Assembly (NCBI GenBank): GCA_024682995.1
Contig: JAIKYR010000071.1
Coordinates: forward strand, 17,883 to 81,882
DNA: 64,000 nucleotides
Source of the DNA: Bacteroidales bacterium
Lineage (GTDB): Bacteria > Bacteroidota > Bacteroidia > Bacteroidales > WCHB1-69
Direction of reading: 5' to 3'
Shown in pieces: positions 2,317-14,433 of the stretch. Both the position numbers and the translations under genes were made by a program. The notes beneath the pieces are model-generated. The model ran no database searches. It was not told the origin of the DNA and saw only the letters and a list, made by a program, of their open reading frames with translations. Each line of letters opens with the position of its first letter. The stretch's first letter is position 1.

Positions 2317-2438
2317 GCGGCCGTAGGCGTAGAAGGTGATGGTGGAGAAGCCGGCGAGCGGGGTGTGTATCATCACGCTCGACACCGCATCGTAGGGGAT
2401 GAAGTCGGTGTTGTGGTGCAACAGCGCCGGTGTTTTGA
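2317..2438 (-). pseudogene. Copy A: internal fragment of the small gene at 3953-4189
   Basis: About 122 bp aligning to 4022-4143 with about 5 mismatches by eye (translated HHNTDFIPYDAVSSVMIHTPLAGFSTITFYAYGR); both gene ends are missing. Confidence 0.75.
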
Positions 2439-2503
2439 CAAACGTATGGACACAAAAAGGTCAAACAAAGAGGGGGAAGATATAACACTATTGAGCGTAT
2501 GTG

Positions 2504-3823
2504 TTATTTTCCCAACAGGAAAGGAATGACACCCATATACATCACGCCATCCTCATCGGTCCATGGAGTGACATTGCCATCCAGCACCACTACTTTGCGA
2601 AACGAGTCGCGAGTGTGATGAAGAGAGAAGGTCTCCTGTTGTTTCTTCTCGTCAGTATCGATGTTGAGGGCGGATTGAATATACATCTTCTCCTTTGCCG
2701 TATTGACGATAAAATCAATCTCATACTGCGCTTGATGACGTTTGCCATTCACCACCCGCTCAACTTCAACCACGCCCACATCGACGCTATGTCCACGGCG
2801 TATTAACTCATTATATATCATATTTTCCATCAAATGAGAGCGCTCTTGTTGTCGGAAATTAAGGCGTGCATTGCGAAGACCCAGATCCATAGCATAGTAT
2901 TTCTTGATATTCTCAAAATACCGTTTGCCTTTGACGTCATACCGCTCCGCTGCAGAAACAAGATAAGCGTCTTCAAGGAAACCCAAATAGTTCTTTATGG
3001 TTGGGTCAGTGGTTTCAAGCGACATTACGGTTTTAATTGTGTTGGCTAATTTATGCGGATTGGACAGTGAACCGACAGCCGAATAAATGGCATTGGTCAA
3101 AGCATCAATGACCACATCGTCTTTGAGCTTATATCGCTCCACAATATCTTTGATATATACATTTCTGTGCAGATCGGACAGATATTTGCGCTTCTCGTTT
3201 TCGTCAGGTTCCAACACAGCCAAAGGCATACCGCCAAAAGTAAGGTATTGCTCCAAAGCATCCGCCTTTTCCAATCCTGCAAACGCATAATACTCTGCAA
3301 AAGATAACGGATAGACCTTGATTTCGCTCCCTCGATCGCGGAAATGGGTGACAATGTCCTTGGATAACATTTTACTGTTACTGCCCGTCACATAGACATC
3401 CATGTTCGATTGCGCTCGCAAACCGTTCAAGATGTCATAGAACGTGATATAGAGTTGGTCCCTGTCTTCTTCTAGCACCTGAGATTCTTCCACATCTGCA
3501 TTCTTAATCTTGTAACTTCGCTGGATTTCATCAATAAAAACATAGTATCTGCGCCGTTTGTCTTTGCAACGGGAGAGCACATGTTCAAACAGGGTTTTAG
3601 GATTACGATAGGCTGCATGAGATGGATTCTCCAAATCTATTTCCACAAAACAATTGGCATTAACACCTTTGTCAAGCAGATACCGCTTGTACAGGTGGGA
3701 TAATAGGTATGATTTTCCAGATCGGCGCAGACCAGTGATAATCTTCACTTTACCATTCCAACTTTTAGCAAATAGTTGCTCCACATAATCGTTTCTTGAG
3801 ATGACCATAAGGCGTTCACACAA
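2504..3823 (-). CDS. AAA+ ATPase with C-terminal DUF4143-type (restriction-endonuclease-like) domain, copy 1
   Basis: 439-aa ORF; Walker A GLRRSGKSYLL, Walker B-like YVFIDEIQ, C-terminal YEIDFIV motif; this architecture is common in Bacteroidetes. Confidence 0.8.
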   Translation of the reverse strand: MCERLMVISRNDYVEQLFAKSWNGKVKIITGLRRSGKSYLLSHLYKRYLLDKGVNANCFVEIDLENPSHAAYRNPKTLFEHVLSRCKDKRRRYYVFIDEIQRSYKIKNADVEESQVLEEDRDQLYITFYDILNGLRAQSNMDVYVTGSNSKMLSKDIVTHFRDRGSEIKVYPLSFAEYYAFAGLEKADALEQYLTFGGMPLAVLEPDENEKRKYLSDLHRNVYIKDIVERYKLKDDVVIDALTNAIYSAVGSLSNPHKLANTIKTVMSLETTDPTIKNYLGFLEDAYLVSAAERYDVKGKRYFENIKKYYAMDLGLRNARLNFRQQERSHLMENMIYNELIRRGHSVDVGVVEVERVVNGKRHQAQYEIDFIVNTAKEKMYIQSALNIDTDEKKQQETFSLHHTRDSFRKVVVLDGNVTPWTDEDGVMYMGVIPFLLGK

Positions 3824-3867
3824 TAAATTTAGTCGGAATTACGACCATTATTAAAGTACAATGGCGG

Positions 3868-3875
3868 CAAAAATA
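3868..3875 (-). promoter_or_regulatory. -7 promoter box (TAnnTTTG) for the ATPase at 2504-3823
   Basis: Minus-strand TATTTTTG, 45 nt upstream of the ATG at 3823. Confidence 0.55.
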
Positions 3876-3952
3876 CAAATAAAATCGAAATGCAGTTTAA
3901 CCAAACAAATTTTTTTTTGAGAATTGCCCGACAATAAAAGTTTCTTTGACCT

Positions 3953-4189
3953 TCACCTCCCCTCCACCAGCCGTTTCATCTCCCGCACCTCGCGCTGGAG
4001 GAACCCGTGGACGCGGATCTCGCGCCCGTAGGCGTAGAAGGTGATGGTGGAGAAGCCGGCGAGCGGGGTGTGTATCATCACGCTGGACACCGCCTCGTAG
4101 GGGATGAAGTCGGTGTTGTGGTGCAACAGTGCCGGCGTTTTGATGGTGACGCCCTCATCGTTGAAGATGATGGTGGGCGGGAACAGCAC
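3953..4189 (-). CDS. Small 78-aa protein, possibly bacterial PH-like (copy B, longest copy); may itself be 5'-truncated
   Basis: ORF starts with GTG and has no in-frame ATG near the 5' end. The frame is open right up to, and in frame with, the RloB stop codon at 4220-4222. Sequence: LFPPTIIFNDEGVTIKTPALLHHNTDFIPYEAVSSVMIHTPLAGFSTITFYAYGREIRVHGF. Confidence 0.45.
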   Translation of the reverse strand: MLFPPTIIFNDEGVTIKTPALLHHNTDFIPYEAVSSVMIHTPLAGFSTITFYAYGREIRVHGFLQREVREMKRLVEGR

Positions 4190-4219
4190 GTTGGATTCGG
4201 AAACGACAAATGTAAAGGA

Positions 4220-4780
4220 TTATTGCCTATAATTCTCAATTGCTTCTAACAGCTTGTATATGGAAGATGATGGATTGCTATTTCCCGCAAGAGTTTTTGC
4301 ACGTTCAACGGCCATTTTTTTGTTCTCCCACAAAGCCTTTTTTTGAGAATCGGAAAGATTGGGTTTTTGGTAATTAAGCCAATTTTCACCTGCTTTTCGC
4401 AAAGTACGAATGCACTGTTCTGACTGCAATTCTGCCGTTTGCCGTTGAAAATGTAATAAAAACCACAATTCAATGCAGGGGCTACTACATAACCATACAG
4501 CCTTGCATGATTTCAGTTTCTCCACCACTGGAGCAACATCCAGGTCATACATCAAAAAGGTTGATATTTGCTCTTCTTTGGATATTTTTAATTCATTCTG
4601 TTGTCGGCTTATCAATCGTTGTGAGATGTTAGACCCCGCCGTTTTAGGTACAATTTTAATAGGCGATTTGTACTGCCGTCTGATAAAATCCACATAGTTT
4701 TCTTCCGTCTCACCTTCGCAGAAGACGAGAAAAACGGGTTTCATCCTTCTTGGTTTATTTCGCTCTCTCCCTTTCCCCAT
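4220..4780 (-). CDS. RloB-like (Toprim-like) protein, AbiLii-like partner of the upstream ATPase
   Basis: 186-aa ORF; N-terminal KPVFLVFCEGETEENYV matches the RloB-family CEGexTExxY signature; start lies 1 nt after the upstream ATPase stop. Confidence 0.75.
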   Translation of the reverse strand: MGKGRERNKPRRMKPVFLVFCEGETEENYVDFIRRQYKSPIKIVPKTAGSNISQRLISRQQNELKISKEEQISTFLMYDLDVAPVVEKLKSCKAVWLCSSPCIELWFLLHFQRQTAELQSEQCIRTLRKAGENWLNYQKPNLSDSQKKALWENKKMAVERAKTLAGNSNPSSSIYKLLEAIENYRQ

Positions 4781-4781
4781 A

Positions 4782-6014
4782 TTAATCCTCTAATAATTTT
4801 TTCAAACTACCCACAGACGAACTGACTAACGGGATGGCGTCAAAGCGTCCTTGCTTATAGCCTTTTTCCGCATCCATATTGTCCCTGAATTCCTTGAAGT
4901 CGTATAGTGAATACACTTCTGTGGAGCCGTCATTTTTTTTGTTGACAAATAGAATCTGATCCTTTCTCATACGAGTCATATCGATCAGATTGGTGTTATG
5001 CGAGGTAAACAAAAGCTGGGCGTTTGTTGAAGCATGTATCAGATCCAAAATGAAATCAGCTAAAAGCGTGTGCAAACTTAGATCAAACTCATCGATCATC
5101 AATGCTTTCTTGTTTTTTACCACATCAAGCAACCGCAACAACACACCAAACAGCTGACGCGTTCCATTTGATTCCTCTGTTGCCATATCAAATGGAATTT
5201 GAGGAGCAAACTTATGATAGGTTAGAAATCTGACTATTTCAACCTCTTGCAGTTTGGATGGGGTAGCATTCTCACCAAAAGACACGCTCCATTGCTGGCC
5301 TTTTTCTTTGCGCAACTCAATATTACAGATGTCGCTGTCGCATACATTCAATGCCTCAAGAACAATTTTTTTGTATTTTTCAAAAAGAGATTCGATACTG
5401 GAGTCGCTCAACGGGACAAGATCCAACAAGAAGGTGTTTAAGAAATATTGGAACAGTCTTTGGGCAAACTCCCTATTCATGGAACTCGCACGACTTAAAA
5501 ACAGGTTCTTCCTGCTGGTGTTGAAAGCCACATCCTTGGCTCGAGGGATGGCACCTTCCGCAAAGGAAAAATCATCTCCCTGCCGTGAGAATATTTTTGC
5601 CCGCCTTTTATTGGGATAATGATACAGGCTCTCCTCCAAAATTTCATTACGTGTAAGAGAGAACGAATATTCGTACTCGATTTCTTCACAAACAAAATTC
5701 ACCAAAAACCGACTTGGCCTTTGATCCCATCCGTCGAATTTGAAAGGTTGGAAATTAAAAACCGTATTTTCGTTGTACAGATGCGACTCAAAAATCAAAT
5801 GGCAGCAACAGTTTATGGCCTTGACGATGTTTGATTTGCCTGAAGCATTCGGACCGAACAAGCCGATGGTTTTCAGTATCGTTTGACCGTTCCACTCCAT
5901 AACATTCTGCGACAGCAACCTACCTTGTTTCGTATTGATATTCCCCGCACGGAAATCAATGGAAACTTTCTCTTTAATGGAGAAGAAATTCTCTAATTCG
6001 ATTTTTAACAGCAT
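4782..6014 (-). CDS. AAA_15/AAA_21-type ABC-like ATPase (AbiLi / AriA / OLD-class)
   Basis: ORF 4782-6044; start placed at ATG 6014 (MLLKIELENFFSIK) because a -7 box sits at 6042-6049; Walker A GLFGPNASGKSN, Walker B ALMIDEFDLSLH, LLFTSHN. Confidence 0.75.
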   Translation of the reverse strand: MLLKIELENFFSIKEKVSIDFRAGNINTKQGRLLSQNVMEWNGQTILKTIGLFGPNASGKSNIVKAINCCCHLIFESHLYNENTVFNFQPFKFDGWDQRPSRFLVNFVCEEIEYEYSFSLTRNEILEESLYHYPNKRRAKIFSRQGDDFSFAEGAIPRAKDVAFNTSRKNLFLSRASSMNREFAQRLFQYFLNTFLLDLVPLSDSSIESLFEKYKKIVLEALNVCDSDICNIELRKEKGQQWSVSFGENATPSKLQEVEIVRFLTYHKFAPQIPFDMATEESNGTRQLFGVLLRLLDVVKNKKALMIDEFDLSLHTLLADFILDLIHASTNAQLLFTSHNTNLIDMTRMRKDQILFVNKKNDGSTEVYSLYDFKEFRDNMDAEKGYKQGRFDAIPLVSSSVGSLKKLLED

Positions 6015-6041
6015 AACAGCCTTGTTTTTGAAAAATCGCTG

Positions 6042-6049
6042 CAAAAATA
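6042..6049 (-). promoter_or_regulatory. -7 promoter box for the ATPase/RloB pair
   Basis: Minus-strand TATTTTTG, 28 nt upstream of ATG 6014. Confidence 0.55.
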
Positions 6050-6131
6050 CAAATTATAATCGAAATAATATAGGTTGTTGATAACTTTTTTATCATATCC
6101 AAGACGTCCGACCAAATTCTATTCCTGCCCT

Positions 6132-6253
6132 TTCACCTCTCCTCCACCAACTCCTTCATCTCCCGCACCTCGCGCTGCAGGAAGCCGTGGACGCGAATCT
6201 CGCGACCGTAGGCGTAGAAGGTGATGGTGGAGAAGCCGGCGAGCGGGTTGTGT
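6132..6253 (-). pseudogene. Copy C: 3'-terminal fragment of the small gene at 3953-4189
   Basis: About 122 bp aligning to 3952-4073 (roughly 90 percent identical by eye), including the stop-codon region; ends 4 nt from the stop of the gene at 6258. Confidence 0.75.
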
Positions 6254-6257
6254 CTTA

Positions 6258-6581
6258 TCAACCTTTATTCTCTTTTAGAAAAGTTAGCGTCTCCTTTTTC
6301 TTCAATTTGTTTGTCTTTGCAGGATACTGTTGCTTGAAGATGCTGAATTGAGGTACAATATTGTTTACATTTACGAGCATTTCAAACATGAAGCACTCTC
6401 GGTGTGTTTTTTGATCATTTTCGGAAAACCATTCGCATTCGGCTTCCTCAAGATCAATGTCCACCACCATCATAACGGGTCCTCCGGTCTTCAACATTAC
6501 CATGTCGCCGATGCCACACCCTTTGCGTTTTGCCCGTCGTTTCATGAAATTCAGAAGTAGGAGGTCGGATAACAAGCCCAT
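6258..6581 (-). CDS. DUF2158 (YodC-like) small protein; start uncertain
   Basis: Motif GDMVMLKTGGPVMMVV...CEWF resembles the DUF2158 core; an alternative start at M13 (6545) is possible. Confidence 0.55.
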   Translation of the reverse strand: MGLLSDLLLLNFMKRRAKRKGCGIGDMVMLKTGGPVMMVVDIDLEEAECEWFSENDQKTHRECFMFEMLVNVNNIVPQFSIFKQQYPAKTNKLKKKETLTFLKENKG

Positions 6582-8991: not shown

Positions 8992-9132
8992 AAAAAAAAA
9001 CCGCGAACTTCATTGTTTCGAGTTCGAGGTCCTGGAAAAACCTGCAATGCCAAACAAAGGAAGCTCACGGCTATAAACCGCAAGCATCTTCGGCTTCCTC
9101 TCGGCATTGCATTTGAAATTTTCCAGGTTTCG
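8992..9132 (-). ncRNA. Candidate small RNA of about 140 nt: long rod-like hairpin with its own -7 box and U-run (alternative: MITE-like palindromic element)
   Basis: Arms around 9020-9064 and 9093-9137 pair almost continuously (CCTGGAAAA/TTTTCCAGG, GCAATGCC/GGCATTGC, GGAAGC/GCTTCC, apical GCTTGCGG/CCGTGAGC). -7 box at 9139-9146. A small CGAACT/AGTTCG stem is followed by T9 (8992-9000) on the minus strand. Confidence 0.35.
9046..9084. repeat. 39-bp direct repeat, copy 1 (lies inside the hairpin element)
   Basis: aatgccaaacaaaggaagctcacggctataaaccgcaag; 33 of 39 identical to 10813-10851 in the same orientation. Confidence 0.7.
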
Positions 9133-9318: not shown

Positions 9319-10653
9319 TTATAGGAATGGGGTAAAATAGACAGGAATGCACTTGGTGGGGCCGTCTTTCTGATAATCTTTGGTATAAAGCAGTATGCGC
9401 TCGCCGATACGTGAAGAGTATTTCTCACAAAAGACATCGAGAGATTTATGGGTTTTATAACCGGAAGATTTCACTTCGATAGGCACCAACTTGTTGCCTC
9501 TTGAAAGCAAAAAGTCGATTTCATAATTGTGTTTTTCATCTTTTGGGAAAGTGTAGTAAAACAATTGATTGCCCGCGCTTGCCAACATCTGTGCTACAAC
9601 ATTTTCATATAAATATCCTAAATTGGCATCAAGCTTGTCCGACAACAGTTTGTCGTAAATCACATTCTCGGTAAAATCTTTGTCCCAAAAACAGAGTGTT
9701 ACAAACAAGCCGGTGTCTGCCATGAAAATCTTGTAACGGGACAAATCCTTGTTCAGAGACATGCCCACATTGGGATCGGTGCAATGGTGGCAGAAAAGAG
9801 CGGTCTTGCTTTGTTCCAATTCCTGAAGCAGCTCTCCCATCTTGGCTGCCGATTGCTGCCCCACTACAGTATAGGGCTGGTATCGGGAGACCTTGCCACT
9901 CAACTGTGCTGGAATATTTTTAAACAAGCGTTCCGCATTACCGGTCGCGTCAATCTTCTGGAAATCTTCAAGGTACAACTGAATAATTCCTCGCTTGGTC
10001 TTGTCCACCAAACTCAAGTTGTTAGTCTCCAAATAAGTATTTACAGCCTGTGGCATGCCTCCTACCAACATGTATAGTCTGAAGTCGCGCATATTCAGGC
10101 GCACGACGGCATCGCCCAACGACATGCGACTATTATATTGTTGTTCGAACAAGGGTATCGAGGCCATGTCTCCCAAAGCCCATCTGAACTCTTCATAATC
10201 CATAGGATACATGGTTATGCGATCCTCCTCACTCGGTATGGTGATATTCCTTGTGTTCTTGTGAATGCTAATCAGCGACCCTGTCTCGATATAGTCATAG
10301 CGGCCATCTTGCACCAAATATTTGATGGCCTGACGAGCTGGAGGACATTTCTGCACCTCATCGAAGATAATGACGGAATTTCTTTCATAAAGTGTTGTTT
10401 TGTAAATCTGCTGCAACAAAAGAAAAATCCTGTCAAGATCCATGAGTTCGTCCCAAAGCCCGACCACATTCTTGCCAACTTTATTGAAATCTATGAGAAT
10501 GTACGACTTGTATTCTTTCCTGGCGAACTGTTCTACAATAGTTGACTTTCCCACACGTCGCGCCCCTTCCACCAAAATTGCAGTCCGGCCATTTTCTGTT
10601 GCTTTCCATTCAAGCAACCGCCGGTACGTTTTCCTTTTGAATATCCGCTCCAT
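9319..10653 (-). CDS. AAA+ ATPase with C-terminal DUF4143-type domain, copy 2
   Basis: 444-aa ORF; Walker A GARRVGKST, Walker B VIIFDEVQ, C-terminal YEIDFLL; diverged paralogue of 2504-3823. Confidence 0.8.
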   Translation of the reverse strand: MERIFKRKTYRRLLEWKATENGRTAILVEGARRVGKSTIVEQFARKEYKSYILIDFNKVGKNVVGLWDELMDLDRIFLLLQQIYKTTLYERNSVIIFDEVQKCPPARQAIKYLVQDGRYDYIETGSLISIHKNTRNITIPSEEDRITMYPMDYEEFRWALGDMASIPLFEQQYNSRMSLGDAVVRLNMRDFRLYMLVGGMPQAVNTYLETNNLSLVDKTKRGIIQLYLEDFQKIDATGNAERLFKNIPAQLSGKVSRYQPYTVVGQQSAAKMGELLQELEQSKTALFCHHCTDPNVGMSLNKDLSRYKIFMADTGLFVTLCFWDKDFTENVIYDKLLSDKLDANLGYLYENVVAQMLASAGNQLFYYTFPKDEKHNYEIDFLLSRGNKLVPIEVKSSGYKTHKSLDVFCEKYSSRIGERILLYTKDYQKDGPTKCIPVYFTPFL

Positions 10654-10683: not shown

Positions 10684-10812
10684 ATAAAAATATGATGACC
10701 CGCAAATTTATATTACGAAAAAATATACTGACCCGCATTTATTTAATTGGAAAAACATGGCCATCCCCACTTTTTTAAGAGCAACACAACAACAACACAA
10801 ACACCCCTCCAC

Positions 10813-10851
10813 AATGCCAAACAAAGAAAGATTACGGCTGTGTACCGCAAG
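10813..10851. repeat. 39-bp direct repeat, copy 2
   Basis: aatgccaaacaaagaaagattacggctgtgtaccgcaag; matches 9046-9084, but the opposite hairpin arm is absent here. Confidence 0.7.
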
Positions 10852-13329: not shown

Positions 13330-13342
13330 CTCATTTTCTTTG

Positions 13343-13416
13343 CGCTCCCTCAAGGACTTGAACCTTGGACCCTCTGATTAACAGTCAGATGCTCTAACCA
13401 ACTGAGCTAAGGAAGC
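13343..13416 (-). tRNA. tRNA-Asn (anticodon GTT)
   Basis: Hand-folded cloverleaf: acceptor GCTTCCT/AGGGAGC, D arm GCTC-AGTTGGTTA-GAGC, anticodon loop CTGTTAA, T arm CAAGG-TTCAAGT-CCTTG; CCA not encoded. Confidence 0.9.
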
Positions 13417-13566: not shown

Positions 13567-14433
13567 ATGAAGTTGACATACAAAGACGTGCTAAAAGAGG
13601 CCAAAAACTATTTCTTTATCACCATCGGTTTGGCAATTTTTGTGCTGGGATGGTCCGCATTTATGACACCTTACGAGGTTACGGGCGGTGGCGTGGCCGG
13701 TATCGCGTCCATCCTTTTCTTCGCCACGGGAATCCCGATCGGCTTTACGACATTTGCGCTCAACGCTATCCTCATTGCTATCGCCTGGAAGGTGCTTGGC
13801 CCTAAATTCTGCATCAACTCCCTGATATGCACGTTCATAATTTCTGTGTTTTTCTATATTGGTCAGCGTATTTTCACGCAGCCCATTGTCGATGACATGT
13901 TCATGAGCGTCATTATCGGCGCCTCGCTGGGCGCGCTCGGCGCCGGCATCTCCATCAACTGGGGCGGCAACACCGGCGGCCTTGACATCATTGCCCTCAT
14001 GGTCGGCAAATACCGGAACATATCGTATGGCAAAGTCAATATGATGTGTAATCTCCTTATCGTGGGTTCCTCGTTTTTCATCCTGCACGATGTGCAGAGA
14101 CTGGTTTATAGCTTTGTGGTGCTCTTTGTGAGCATGTTGGTGGCCGACACGGTGATTGACGGCTTCCACCAGACCTACCAGTTCATGGTCTTCTCCAAAA
14201 AGAACGATGATATTTCCCGTCGTATCAATCAGGAACTGCATCGCGGGGCCACCTTTCTCAAAGGCTATGGGGCTTATAACCGTCAGGAGAGCGACGTGCT
14301 GCTCATCATCACCCACCGCAGCGACAAGGTGCGTGTCACCCGCATCATCAAGGAGATTGATAGCACCGCGTTCGTCACCATCACCAAAACCTCCAGCGTG
14401 TTCGGGAAGAACTTCGACACACTGAAATTGTGA
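13567..14433 (+). CDS. YitT-family membrane protein (DUF2179 C-terminal domain)
   Basis: 288-aa polytopic ORF; GGGVAGIASILFF; soluble C-terminal part typical of YitT/DUF2179. Confidence 0.8.
   Translation: MKLTYKDVLKEAKNYFFITIGLAIFVLGWSAFMTPYEVTGGGVAGIASILFFATGIPIGFTTFALNAILIAIAWKVLGPKFCINSLICTFIISVFFYIGQRIFTQPIVDDMFMSVIIGASLGALGAGISINWGGNTGGLDIIALMVGKYRNISYGKVNMMCNLLIVGSSFFILHDVQRLVYSFVVLFVSMLVADTVIDGFHQTYQFMVFSKKNDDISRRINQELHRGATFLKGYGAYNRQESDVLLIITHRSDKVRVTRIIKEIDSTAFVTITKTSSVFGKNFDTLKL

Follow-up and report, generated by a model that had tools for sequence, protein, structure and literature searches.

Fragments of one small gene as putative homology arms for defence-type gene cassettes in uncultured rumen and gut Bacteroidales

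We describe here an array of repeated gene fragments in a 64-kb stretch of DNA from an uncultured Bacteroidales bacterium (GenBank assembly GCA_024682995.1, contig JAIKYR010000071.1), the whole of which is referred to below as the window. The repeated element is a small gene, termed X, three copies of which lie in direct orientation on the minus strand, are 92-95% identical to one another and bracket two defence-type gene cassettes. Positions on X are written as X[a-b], the nucleotides of the 279-nt full-length gene of relatives as placed by nhmmer. Copy A (2311-2438) is an internal fragment, X[89-218]; copy B (3953-4205) is X[27-278]; and copy C (6133-6253, with weak similarity continuing to 6264) is a 3' fragment, X[148-278], which by repeat search, nhmmer and alignment runs from about X nt 148-153 to the stop codon. 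The repeat search paired 2312-2438 with 4017-4143 at 94% identity and 3952-4080 with 6132-6260 at 91%, and placed 2312-2438, 4017-4143 and 6197-6323 in one family. Local alignment gave 120 identical positions out of 127 for A and B (94.5%), 111 out of 121 for C and B (91.7%), and 54 out of 58 in the overlap of A and C (93%). A preliminary description of this DNA had reported three direct copies of a single small gene sharing a core of 52 bp; both searches bear this out, and the core lies within the 58-nt overlap of A and C.

The first cassette, between copies A and B, carries on the minus strand one gene for an AAA_14 + DUF4143 ATPase (2504-3823, G+C fraction 0.43). It matches the PDC-S01 models of PADLOC (E 2.7e-103), a candidate defence class only. 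The second cassette, between copies B and C, carries two minus-strand genes: an AAA_21 ATPase (4782-6044; Pfam AAA_21 1.1e-29, PADLOC AbiLi 1.6e-78) and, following it, an RloB protein (4220-4780; Pfam RloB 2.8e-23, PADLOC AbiLii 1.1e-22). The adjacent AbiLi and AbiLii genes form a predicted AbiL abortive-infection system with a putative anti-phage role. Pfam thus agreed with the gene content that had been read from the sequence. Each cassette has its own leader, at 3824-3952 (G+C 0.30) for the first and at 6045-6132 for the second, the latter beginning right after the stop codon of copy C. TAnnTTTG is the Bacteroidetes-type -7 consensus, and both leaders hold ATTTGTATTTTTGC, containing the -7 box TATTTTTG of this form, upstream of the first gene (within 3858-3884, assigned to repeat family D5, and within 6032-6058). 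The base composition changed along the array, with G+C fractions of 0.59-0.63 in the X copies, 0.40-0.43 in the cassette genes, 0.30 in the leaders and 0.54 in pyrG.

Read along the minus strand, the order is a small DUF2158 gene (6254-6581), whose 3' end is joined to copy C, a filler of about 40 nt (6254-6294) outside the homology to relatives, copy C, the AbiL unit with copy B, the DUF4143 unit with copy A, a palindrome, and the 3' end of the plus-strand gene pyrG (615-2264). No intact X was found anywhere in the 64-kb window. Copy B lacks the ATG and about the first 9 codons, and the first stop codon met when its frame is traced backward is that of RloB. The 16 nt between that stop codon and X nt 27 are mostly unlike the start of X, which corrects the earlier account of this junction; the suggestion that copy B is the remnant of a longer gene proved right, since relatives carry an intact 92-aa gene. 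In relatives, up to five genes (154 to ~390 aa, the last being a gene of 310 aa) and the intact X separate DUF2158 from the array. In the window, homology to relatives stops at 6295, and the intact X has therefore presumably been deleted or rearranged away. The order of a 3' fragment, a near-full copy and an internal fragment differs from the product of simple integration and, judged by comparison with relatives, is a derived and decayed state, which would be the reason why the longest copy stands in the middle of the array. The genes upstream and the 5' end of the once intact X would have been lost in the same deletion or rearrangement.

The window was compared with 48 related loci (L001-L048), of which 21 came from species-representative genomes, 25 from metagenomes by means of the conserved core, and two (L047 and L048) from look-ups. 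Titled records were mostly rumen metagenome-assembled genomes (MAGs), with a few from human or other guts. Between 10 and 20 kb were inspected per locus, and copies were counted over 47 sources. These held 97 X copies, all in direct orientation and 29 of full length; at least two copies were present in 28 sources. X was usually intact in relatives and was followed by an array of cassette, 3' fragment, cassette and 3' fragment, and then by a housekeeping gene. The full copy led in 16 of the 17 arrays having both a full copy and fragments, and the gaps from copy to copy were mostly 0.9-1.9 kb, fitting one gene. The intact X was typically the last gene, behind the 310-aa gene and downstream of a cluster with radical SAM/SPASM, PqqD and DUF2158 genes; in other lineages it stood behind an ion-transport (ion-channel) gene. 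The housekeeping gene downstream also differed by lineage, being trpS, a PALP enzyme gene, nadD or, as in L009 and the window, pyrG. As the flanking genes vary in several combinations, gene order is either broken where the arrays lie or falsely joined at X in some chimeric MAG contigs.

Empty sites, with a single X, no cassette and then the trpS region, were present in L014, L025, L028 and L046. In L001 the right fragment was down to 10 nt and has evidently decayed by deletion. Empty sites, the intact ancestral gene and alternative cargo, all of which the preliminary description had proposed to look for in relatives, were thus found, and its point that the content between the repeats is variable holds, as relatives carry different cassettes. 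Neither the array nor the "empty" spacer of L014 contained a known RNA family. In L048, three tandem X fragments lie about 120 nt apart at 9872-10370; the first spacer contains a promoter-like stretch (TTATTGCAAGTTTGC) and no gene, so that it appears to be an empty cassette, and most of the second interval consists of N, an assembly gap.

The genes upstream of X were similar in L005 (2921-9983), L006, L007, L021 and others. Their products are a radical SAM/SPASM enzyme whose N-terminus is PqqD-like, small DUF2158 proteins (one or two), a ~390-aa lipoprotein, several small proteins of no known family, an amidohydrolase-like protein and the family-less 310-aa protein. This cluster looks like a peptide-modification locus of the RiPP (ribosomally synthesised and post-translationally modified peptide) type. 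Only the DUF2158 gene of this cluster is retained in the window.

A protein search with copy B returned a family of about 92 aa, all members of which were from uncultured Bacteroidales, and also many shorter "proteins" starting at varied points within X. The AlphaFold model of X (pLDDT 87.8) has seven strands and a C-terminal helix, and a Foldseek search matched it to PH domains, including the bacterial structures 3dcx, 3hsa and 3b77, with TM values of 0.55-0.7; X is accordingly predicted to have a bacterial PH-type fold. Sequence models gave no Pfam match above threshold (bPH_3 at E 0.015 was below the cut-off) and no NCBIfam match. The fragments differ from the consensus by 4.6, 3.2 and 10.7% at codon positions 1, 2 and 3, and the full-length copies by 4.7, 2.7 and 13.0% over the same region; 50 of 58 fragments have neither a stop codon nor a gap. 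Untranslated relics would lose such codon bias, and the fragments are therefore either young or refreshed from working alleles. A viral origin was considered and rejected, the X core having no match in a collection of viral contigs.

Within X, CCACCATCA(T/C)CTTC occurs twice in direct orientation (nt 55-69 and 180-194), and in the copy behind the AbiL cassette of L009 (12552-12610) the sequence between the two internal repeats has apparently been lost. Upstream of the main X, at a distance of a few kb, some loci carry a divergent paralogue (~48% amino acid identity) within an ORF of 214-219 aa: at 8751-9005 in L014, 8312-8528 in L040 and 5739-5995 in L048.

When the cassettes of all loci were sorted into types (K-numbers), every type was found to keep one start of the X fragment on its right side. 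These starts span X nt 27-201, with at least 20 distinct ones, and the repeats measure 35-250 bp. Thus K12 was followed by X from nt 93/94 in all five occurrences, K13 from nt 57 in five of five and K25 from nt 192 in four of four; the start was at nt 168 for K17r, 163/164 for K5r, 163-165 for K6r and about 149-166 for K24r. The two cassettes of the window obey the same rule: copy B, the right-hand fragment of the AbiL cassette, begins at X nt 27 as it does in L009, and copy A, that of the DUF4143 cassette, begins at nt 89/90 as it does in L043, where the related cassette is followed by X[90-278]. The copy on the left varied. K13 was found behind X[1-278], X[192-277], X[165-278], X[163-277] or X[243-278], and the AbiL cassette behind the full X in L031, X[149-278] in L009 and X[148-278] in the window. 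As the right fragment is fixed and the left copy is not, the unit consists of the cargo together with its right fragment and can be placed behind any X copy.

No common motif was present at the right junctions. On the left, most cassettes begin directly after the stop codon of X; several different cargos share either about 20 nt after the stop codon (a small hairpin, GCGTGCTTTCCGCACGC) or at least 60 nt (AATTATGAGGAATACGG...), and since these shared stretches differ, the left boundary is not a single fixed point. Nearly all fragments retain X nt 201-253, and their starts cluster at X nt 148-178.

The cargo was identified with Pfam and the PADLOC models, in which PDC classes denote defence candidates. 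It comprised AAA_14 + DUF4143 proteins (PDC-S01, about 10 types), ATPase_2 proteins with or without DUF234 (PDC-S27), ORF6N (PDC-S05), Fic (SoFic / PDC-S04), AbiLi + AbiLii, AbiEi/AbiEii, the DUF1016/YhcG nuclease and one RAYT-like gene. Cassettes occurred in both orientations. TAnnTTTG was present within 150 nt upstream in 14 of 18 cassette types, as against 8% of random 150-nt windows, and two of the four types without an upstream box have one inside an ORF that was called too long. Together with both leaders of the window, this supports the earlier proposal of self-contained cassettes with -7 boxes of their own; the cassettes are, as far as their sequences tell, AT-rich, self-contained modules of defence type with predicted promoter boxes.

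About 12 of the ~20 cassette types encode ATPases of the AAA_14 + DUF4143 or ATPase_2 + DUF234 kind, which raises the question of whether the cargo moves itself. Such ATPases could be selfish genes that break DNA near X through a PD-(D/E)XK-type domain, repair then installing the gene with a long target duplication and other cargo riding in trans. DUF4143 has been placed in the PD-(D/E)XK superfamily (PMC3424549), and insertion with duplication, amplification through the repeats and release have been proposed for restriction-modification genes (PMC2853133). A second hotspot, in the window and in L003 and L009, also brackets DUF4143 genes with a different repeat, the repeats numbering one more than the cassettes. 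We nevertheless regard self-mobilisation as quite unlikely: the AbiL, ORF6N, Fic and DUF1016 cassettes share the architecture without such an ATPase, the junctions have no common cleavage motif, and nuclease or transposition activity of this ATPase family is only putative.

Evidence on the mode of exchange came from cassettes shared between loci. These were mostly 98.8-99.8% identical (94.8-99.8% over all pairs), the neighbouring conserved genes being 84-94% identical. The window from 6242 to 4160 matched L009 over 2083 bp at 99.2%, with the AbiL genes at 99.8% and pyrG DNA at about 91%; some 7 of the ~17 differences fell in the X fragment at the left end of the stretch. Around shared cassettes, X started to differ 1-20 nt in the leftward and 4-50 nt in the rightward direction. 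With K12, the cargo of which is 99.3-99.8% identical, the right fragments diverged from X nt 98, 102 or 120, and the left copies at nt 272-275, 233 or 207, depending on the pair. Scattered breaks of the same kind were seen with K13, K25, K24r, K17r, K5r and AbiL. If f is the start of a fragment and c a single cutting coordinate, the right-hand X[f..c] and the left-hand X[c..278] should be as similar between genomes as the cargo. The break points are scattered and no value of c fits; hence there is no single crossover coordinate. The scattered breaks are consistent with the sequence pattern expected from repeated homologous exchange or gene conversion. Homogenisation of the copies within a genome (concerted evolution) was rejected, because copies within one genome are 92-95% identical, which is not above the ~94% between genomes.

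These breaks bear on the mechanism proposed in the preliminary description, which had left a choice between att-like tandem site-specific integration and the swapping of cassettes through flanking homology; the second fits the data, and the first agrees poorly with the variable starts, the scattered breaks and the lack of a hairpin or an integrase. In its most general form the first would be a tandem site-specific accretion, where the 3' end of X serves as attB for an integrase encoded elsewhere in the genome, or on a helper integrative and conjugative or mobilizable element (ICE or IME), and the cassettes are mobilised in trans, either as cis-mobilizable elements (CIMEs) or in the manner of integron or rAID cassettes. 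Such accretion classically leaves an intact target and, between the inserts, direct 3' fragments of it (CIME, PMC5704250), most cassettes do start exactly at the X stop codon, X nt 201-253 are kept in nearly all fragments, and Bacteroidales possess integron-like arrays with a XerD-family recombinase (rAID-1, 10.1101/471110). Against this, the blocks of identity are 35-250 bp long with cassette-specific starts, no value of c can be chosen for which a cassette is accompanied by X[f..c] at its right and X[c..278] at its left, and the cassettes lie in both orientations with promoters of their own.

The search for a recombinase gave no support to accretion either. Apart from the RAYT-like ORF, no integrase, relaxase or transposase was found in the cassettes and neighbours examined, which covered ~20 cassette types and 48 arrays, nor was an integrase remnant. 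The Pfam scan of the window for integrases and transposases took in the long ORFs of positions 1-17.5 kb and two short ORFs beside the tRNA-Asn gene, and the neighbours of L047 and L048 were read from precomputed Pfam annotation over +/-10 kb. The preliminary statement that no recombinase is visible therefore stands for the window ORFs scanned and for the array neighbours. Copy C alone folds into a long-range stem (z = -3.0), as accretion would have it, but copy B does not (z = -0.5), and an RNAalifold consensus of 21 distinct X 3' regions reached -16.3 kcal/mol with a covariation term of -0.5. No conserved attC-like hairpin was thus found in the copies, and this candidate was rejected, as the single folds disagree and there is almost no covariation. 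Taken together, these observations make tandem accretion unlikely.

Two further candidates were discarded. The repeats are not ends of an insertion sequence or transposon, being direct, consisting of pieces of a conserved 92-aa gene and having no transposase; and the 310-aa gene is not a plausible hidden recombinase, as neither Pfam nor NCBIfam matched it and some arrays stand behind the ion-channel gene and lack it.

In our judgement the window probably represents the decayed end of a recombinase-free hotspot of defence cassettes in uncultured rumen and gut Bacteroidales, and the data suggest that defence genes are swapped between species by using X fragments as ready-made homology arms. An ends-in or homology-facilitated illegitimate event would at first have put new cargo behind X, thereby duplicating X from a random point f to its end, that is, creating the "long target duplication". 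The 3' end of the preceding X copy would then act as the left arm and the cassette's own X[f-278] as the right arm. Because a cassette is flanked by X on both sides, general, RecA-type homologous recombination or gene conversion could copy it behind any X copy, either within one genome or into another species. Loss would occur by recombination between the direct repeats.

The steps of this scheme are not equally secure. Comparison of the loci shows, at the level of sequence, the structure of the unit, its placement behind any X, recent exchange, scattered breaks, empty sites and decay. Several points weigh against the homology-arm scheme. The first acquisition of an X fragment by new cargo is something we infer, by an argument that is partly circular. 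Most left boundaries lie exactly at the X stop codon, which is more regular than random illegitimate insertion predicts. The clustering of starts at X nt 148-178 could be due to functional constraint, as opposed to a balance of spread against loss. Since the loci cover 10-20 kb, a recombinase encoded outside them might act in trans. The second DUF4143 hotspot, with its strong hairpin, hints at something more specific than plain recombination. Finally, all sources are short-read MAG or metagenome assemblies, in which repeats of 100-250 bp can yield chimeric joins, so that the context of some units may be incorrect.

The last point could be taken further, to the view that the arrays are artefacts, that is, chimeric metagenomic joins through the conserved X sequence. 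The X fragments, 100-250 bp in length and at least 90% alike, would lend themselves to such joins, and arrays are flanked by different core genes in different MAGs. The copies, however, differ by 5-8% and are therefore not collapsed repeats. The junctions are precise and reproducible, and adjacencies come back in independent assemblies: K12 is adjacent to K24r in L004, L009, L020 and L023 and K25 to K13 in L027 and L036, and AbiL with a right fragment from X nt 27 recurs in both the window and L009. We consider a general artefact highly improbable.

A broader reading would join the X arrays with the hairpin-repeat arrays of the second hotspot as one dedicated, integron-like system for capturing anti-phage cassettes without an adjacent integrase. 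It could take two forms, in which either host RecA works on co-opted homology arms or a trans-acting enzyme, for example the DUF4143 ATPase-nuclease, recognises the repeats and inserts the cassettes there. We put this forward as a tentative possibility, doubtful in our own estimation.

The proposed exchange of X cassettes by homology arms has parallels in several known systems. Restriction-modification units without mobility genes have been found inserted with long, variable target duplications (46-423 bp in Furuta et al. 2010, PMC2853133; see also Nobusato/Kobayashi 2000). At the empty site the duplicated sequence occurs once, in some cases it overlaps a gene's 3' end, and the repeats have been proposed to support later amplification and release (PMC2853133). 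The X arrays agree in that a defence unit without mobility genes lies between direct repeats of more than 30 bp (here 35-250 bp), X is single-copy at empty sites and the length of the duplication varies. They differ in that X has been hit repeatedly, giving arrays of several cassettes, in that one boundary of the duplication nearly always coincides with the gene's end, in the cargo (PDC-S01/S27/S05, Fic, AbiL, DUF1016), and in that cassettes are ~99% identical across species-level lineages.

The core defence hotspots (cDHS) of Pseudomonas exchange their content by flanking homology. The X arrays also resemble the minimal mobile elements of Neisseria (PMC3787668), where varied whole-gene cassettes lie between conserved flanks and, in the absence of mobility genes, are exchanged by homologous recombination. 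In such minimal mobile elements and hotspots, however, the arms are two different core genes and each site holds one cassette, whereas the X cassettes carry one arm themselves. As both arms target X, cassettes can stack in tandem and move to any X copy, whatever lies downstream.

The accretion of ICEs, IMEs and CIMEs (PMC5704250; Pavlovic 2004 as cited there) likewise yields an intact target with direct repeats of its 3' end between inserts, some of which lack an integrase. Those systems have short, fixed att cores, an integrase in at least one partner and kilobase-sized elements with remnants of transfer or recombination genes; in the X arrays no integrase was found, cassettes are 1-2 kb with one or two genes, the repeats vary and the crossovers are scattered. 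With rAID-1 (Ross et al. 2019, 10.1101/471110) and integrons the X arrays share short acquired cassettes, repetitive spacers and skewed G+C content, and rAID-1 occurs in the same order. Neither an IntI nor a XerD-family recombinase was found adjacent to the arrays, however, the upstream genes being the 310-aa gene, radical SAM/SPASM, DUF2158 or the ion channel, and the repeats are fragments of a coding gene of variable length and not attC hairpins or a shared intergenic motif. Whereas integron cassettes are mostly promoterless and co-oriented from Pc, X cassettes have their own boxes and lie in both orientations. The cargo of rAID-1 consists of type VI secretion system immunity genes and that of the X arrays is of anti-phage type.

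Orphan arrays of Rhs and contact-dependent inhibition (CDI) genes have a comparable layout, with a full gene followed by displaced partial copies interleaved with small cargo, and their repeats permit recombination. Each orphan there consists of a conserved 5' piece and a new, variable toxin tip at the 3' side, and contributes to the function of the gene. The X fragments differ in being conserved 3' ends without a variable tip, and the cargo is unrelated to X.

No published description of such arrays was found in the literature on DUF4143, PDC-S01 and defence hotspots or direct repeats. What is new compared with the known systems is the repeated use of one small target gene, the stacking of units and the arms that travel with the cassette. 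The present case offers a testable mechanism for the assembly of defence islands at sites without mobile-element genes: a cassette that carries its own copy of the target could be transferred to any genome having the target and could be stacked, and general recombination would suffice. PDC-S01, PDC-S27, PDC-S05, SoFic and AbiE-type systems are among the commonest PADLOC annotations in rumen genomes, PDC-S01 being the top locus (PMC13356809). Given this frequency, the array architecture may help to explain their spread in Bacteroidales. A search rule for new defence candidates also follows, namely to inspect the sequence between X fragments.

Some further elements were noted near the arrays. 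The window has an intact tRNA-Asn gene (13342-13416). L009 carries at 13934-13982, between the X array and porV/pyrG, a 49-bp stretch that repeats the 3' half of the tRNA-Asn sequence, beginning in the anticodon loop and reaching the 3' end, and that has the orientation of the intact gene of the window. It resembles an old attR, in which case the whole variable region would lie within an ancient island that had integrated at the tRNA-Asn gene. No integrase was found near the fragment (an adjacent ORF of 417 aa, considered as a candidate, is PorV), and the window does not have such a fragment.

The second hotspot lies downstream of a Ser/Thr kinase gene, where DUF4143 (PDC-S01) genes lie between copies of a non-coding repeat about 300 nt long. 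The repeats are at 9045-9084 and 10812-10851 in the window, flanking a DUF4143 gene (9319-10653), at 1229-1249, 3019-3039 and 4842-4862 in L003, and at 552-572 and 1710-1730 in L009. L003 has three repeats and two cassettes, and a locus that has no cassette contains a single repeat. The repeat is conserved at about 85-90% of nucleotides, compared with 64% of amino acids for the genes between. It contains a hairpin of ~100 nt (RNA fold of -53 kcal/mol, z = -6.5) and has no match in Rfam.

The palindrome of the window, TGTAGAGA...TCTCTACA (2281-2310), resembles repetitive extragenic palindromic (REP) sequences and lies between the pyrG stop codon and copy A, where the latter ends at X nt ~216-218. 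It is present once in the window, where none is expected by chance, and belongs to a family of the form TGTAGAGACG-loop-CGTCTCTACA, with variable loops, that is dispersed in five sources; the other members are at 9686-9715 in L013, 2135-2164 in L015, 11923-11952 and 12677-12706 in L018, and 2062-2091 in L020. The palindrome adjoins the end of X at nt 216-221 in copy A of the window, in L020 (nt 221) and in protein P0028. In L018, two palindromes flank a RAYT-like ORF of 188 aa, which scored 51 bits with REP_Tyr_transpos (NCBIfam cut-off 80) and E 1.6e-4 with Pfam Y1_Tnp.

A TGTACA-rich element of about 90 bp with inverted-repeat ends, similar to a miniature inverted-repeat transposable element, replaces X nt 197-242 in several unrelated arrays. 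It was located at 11895-11990 in L003, 380-469 in L019, ~11160-11257 in L002, ~12320-12420 in L040, ~7970-8070 in L033 and 12595-12680 in L009, and in protein P0026 it lies inside an otherwise full-length X.

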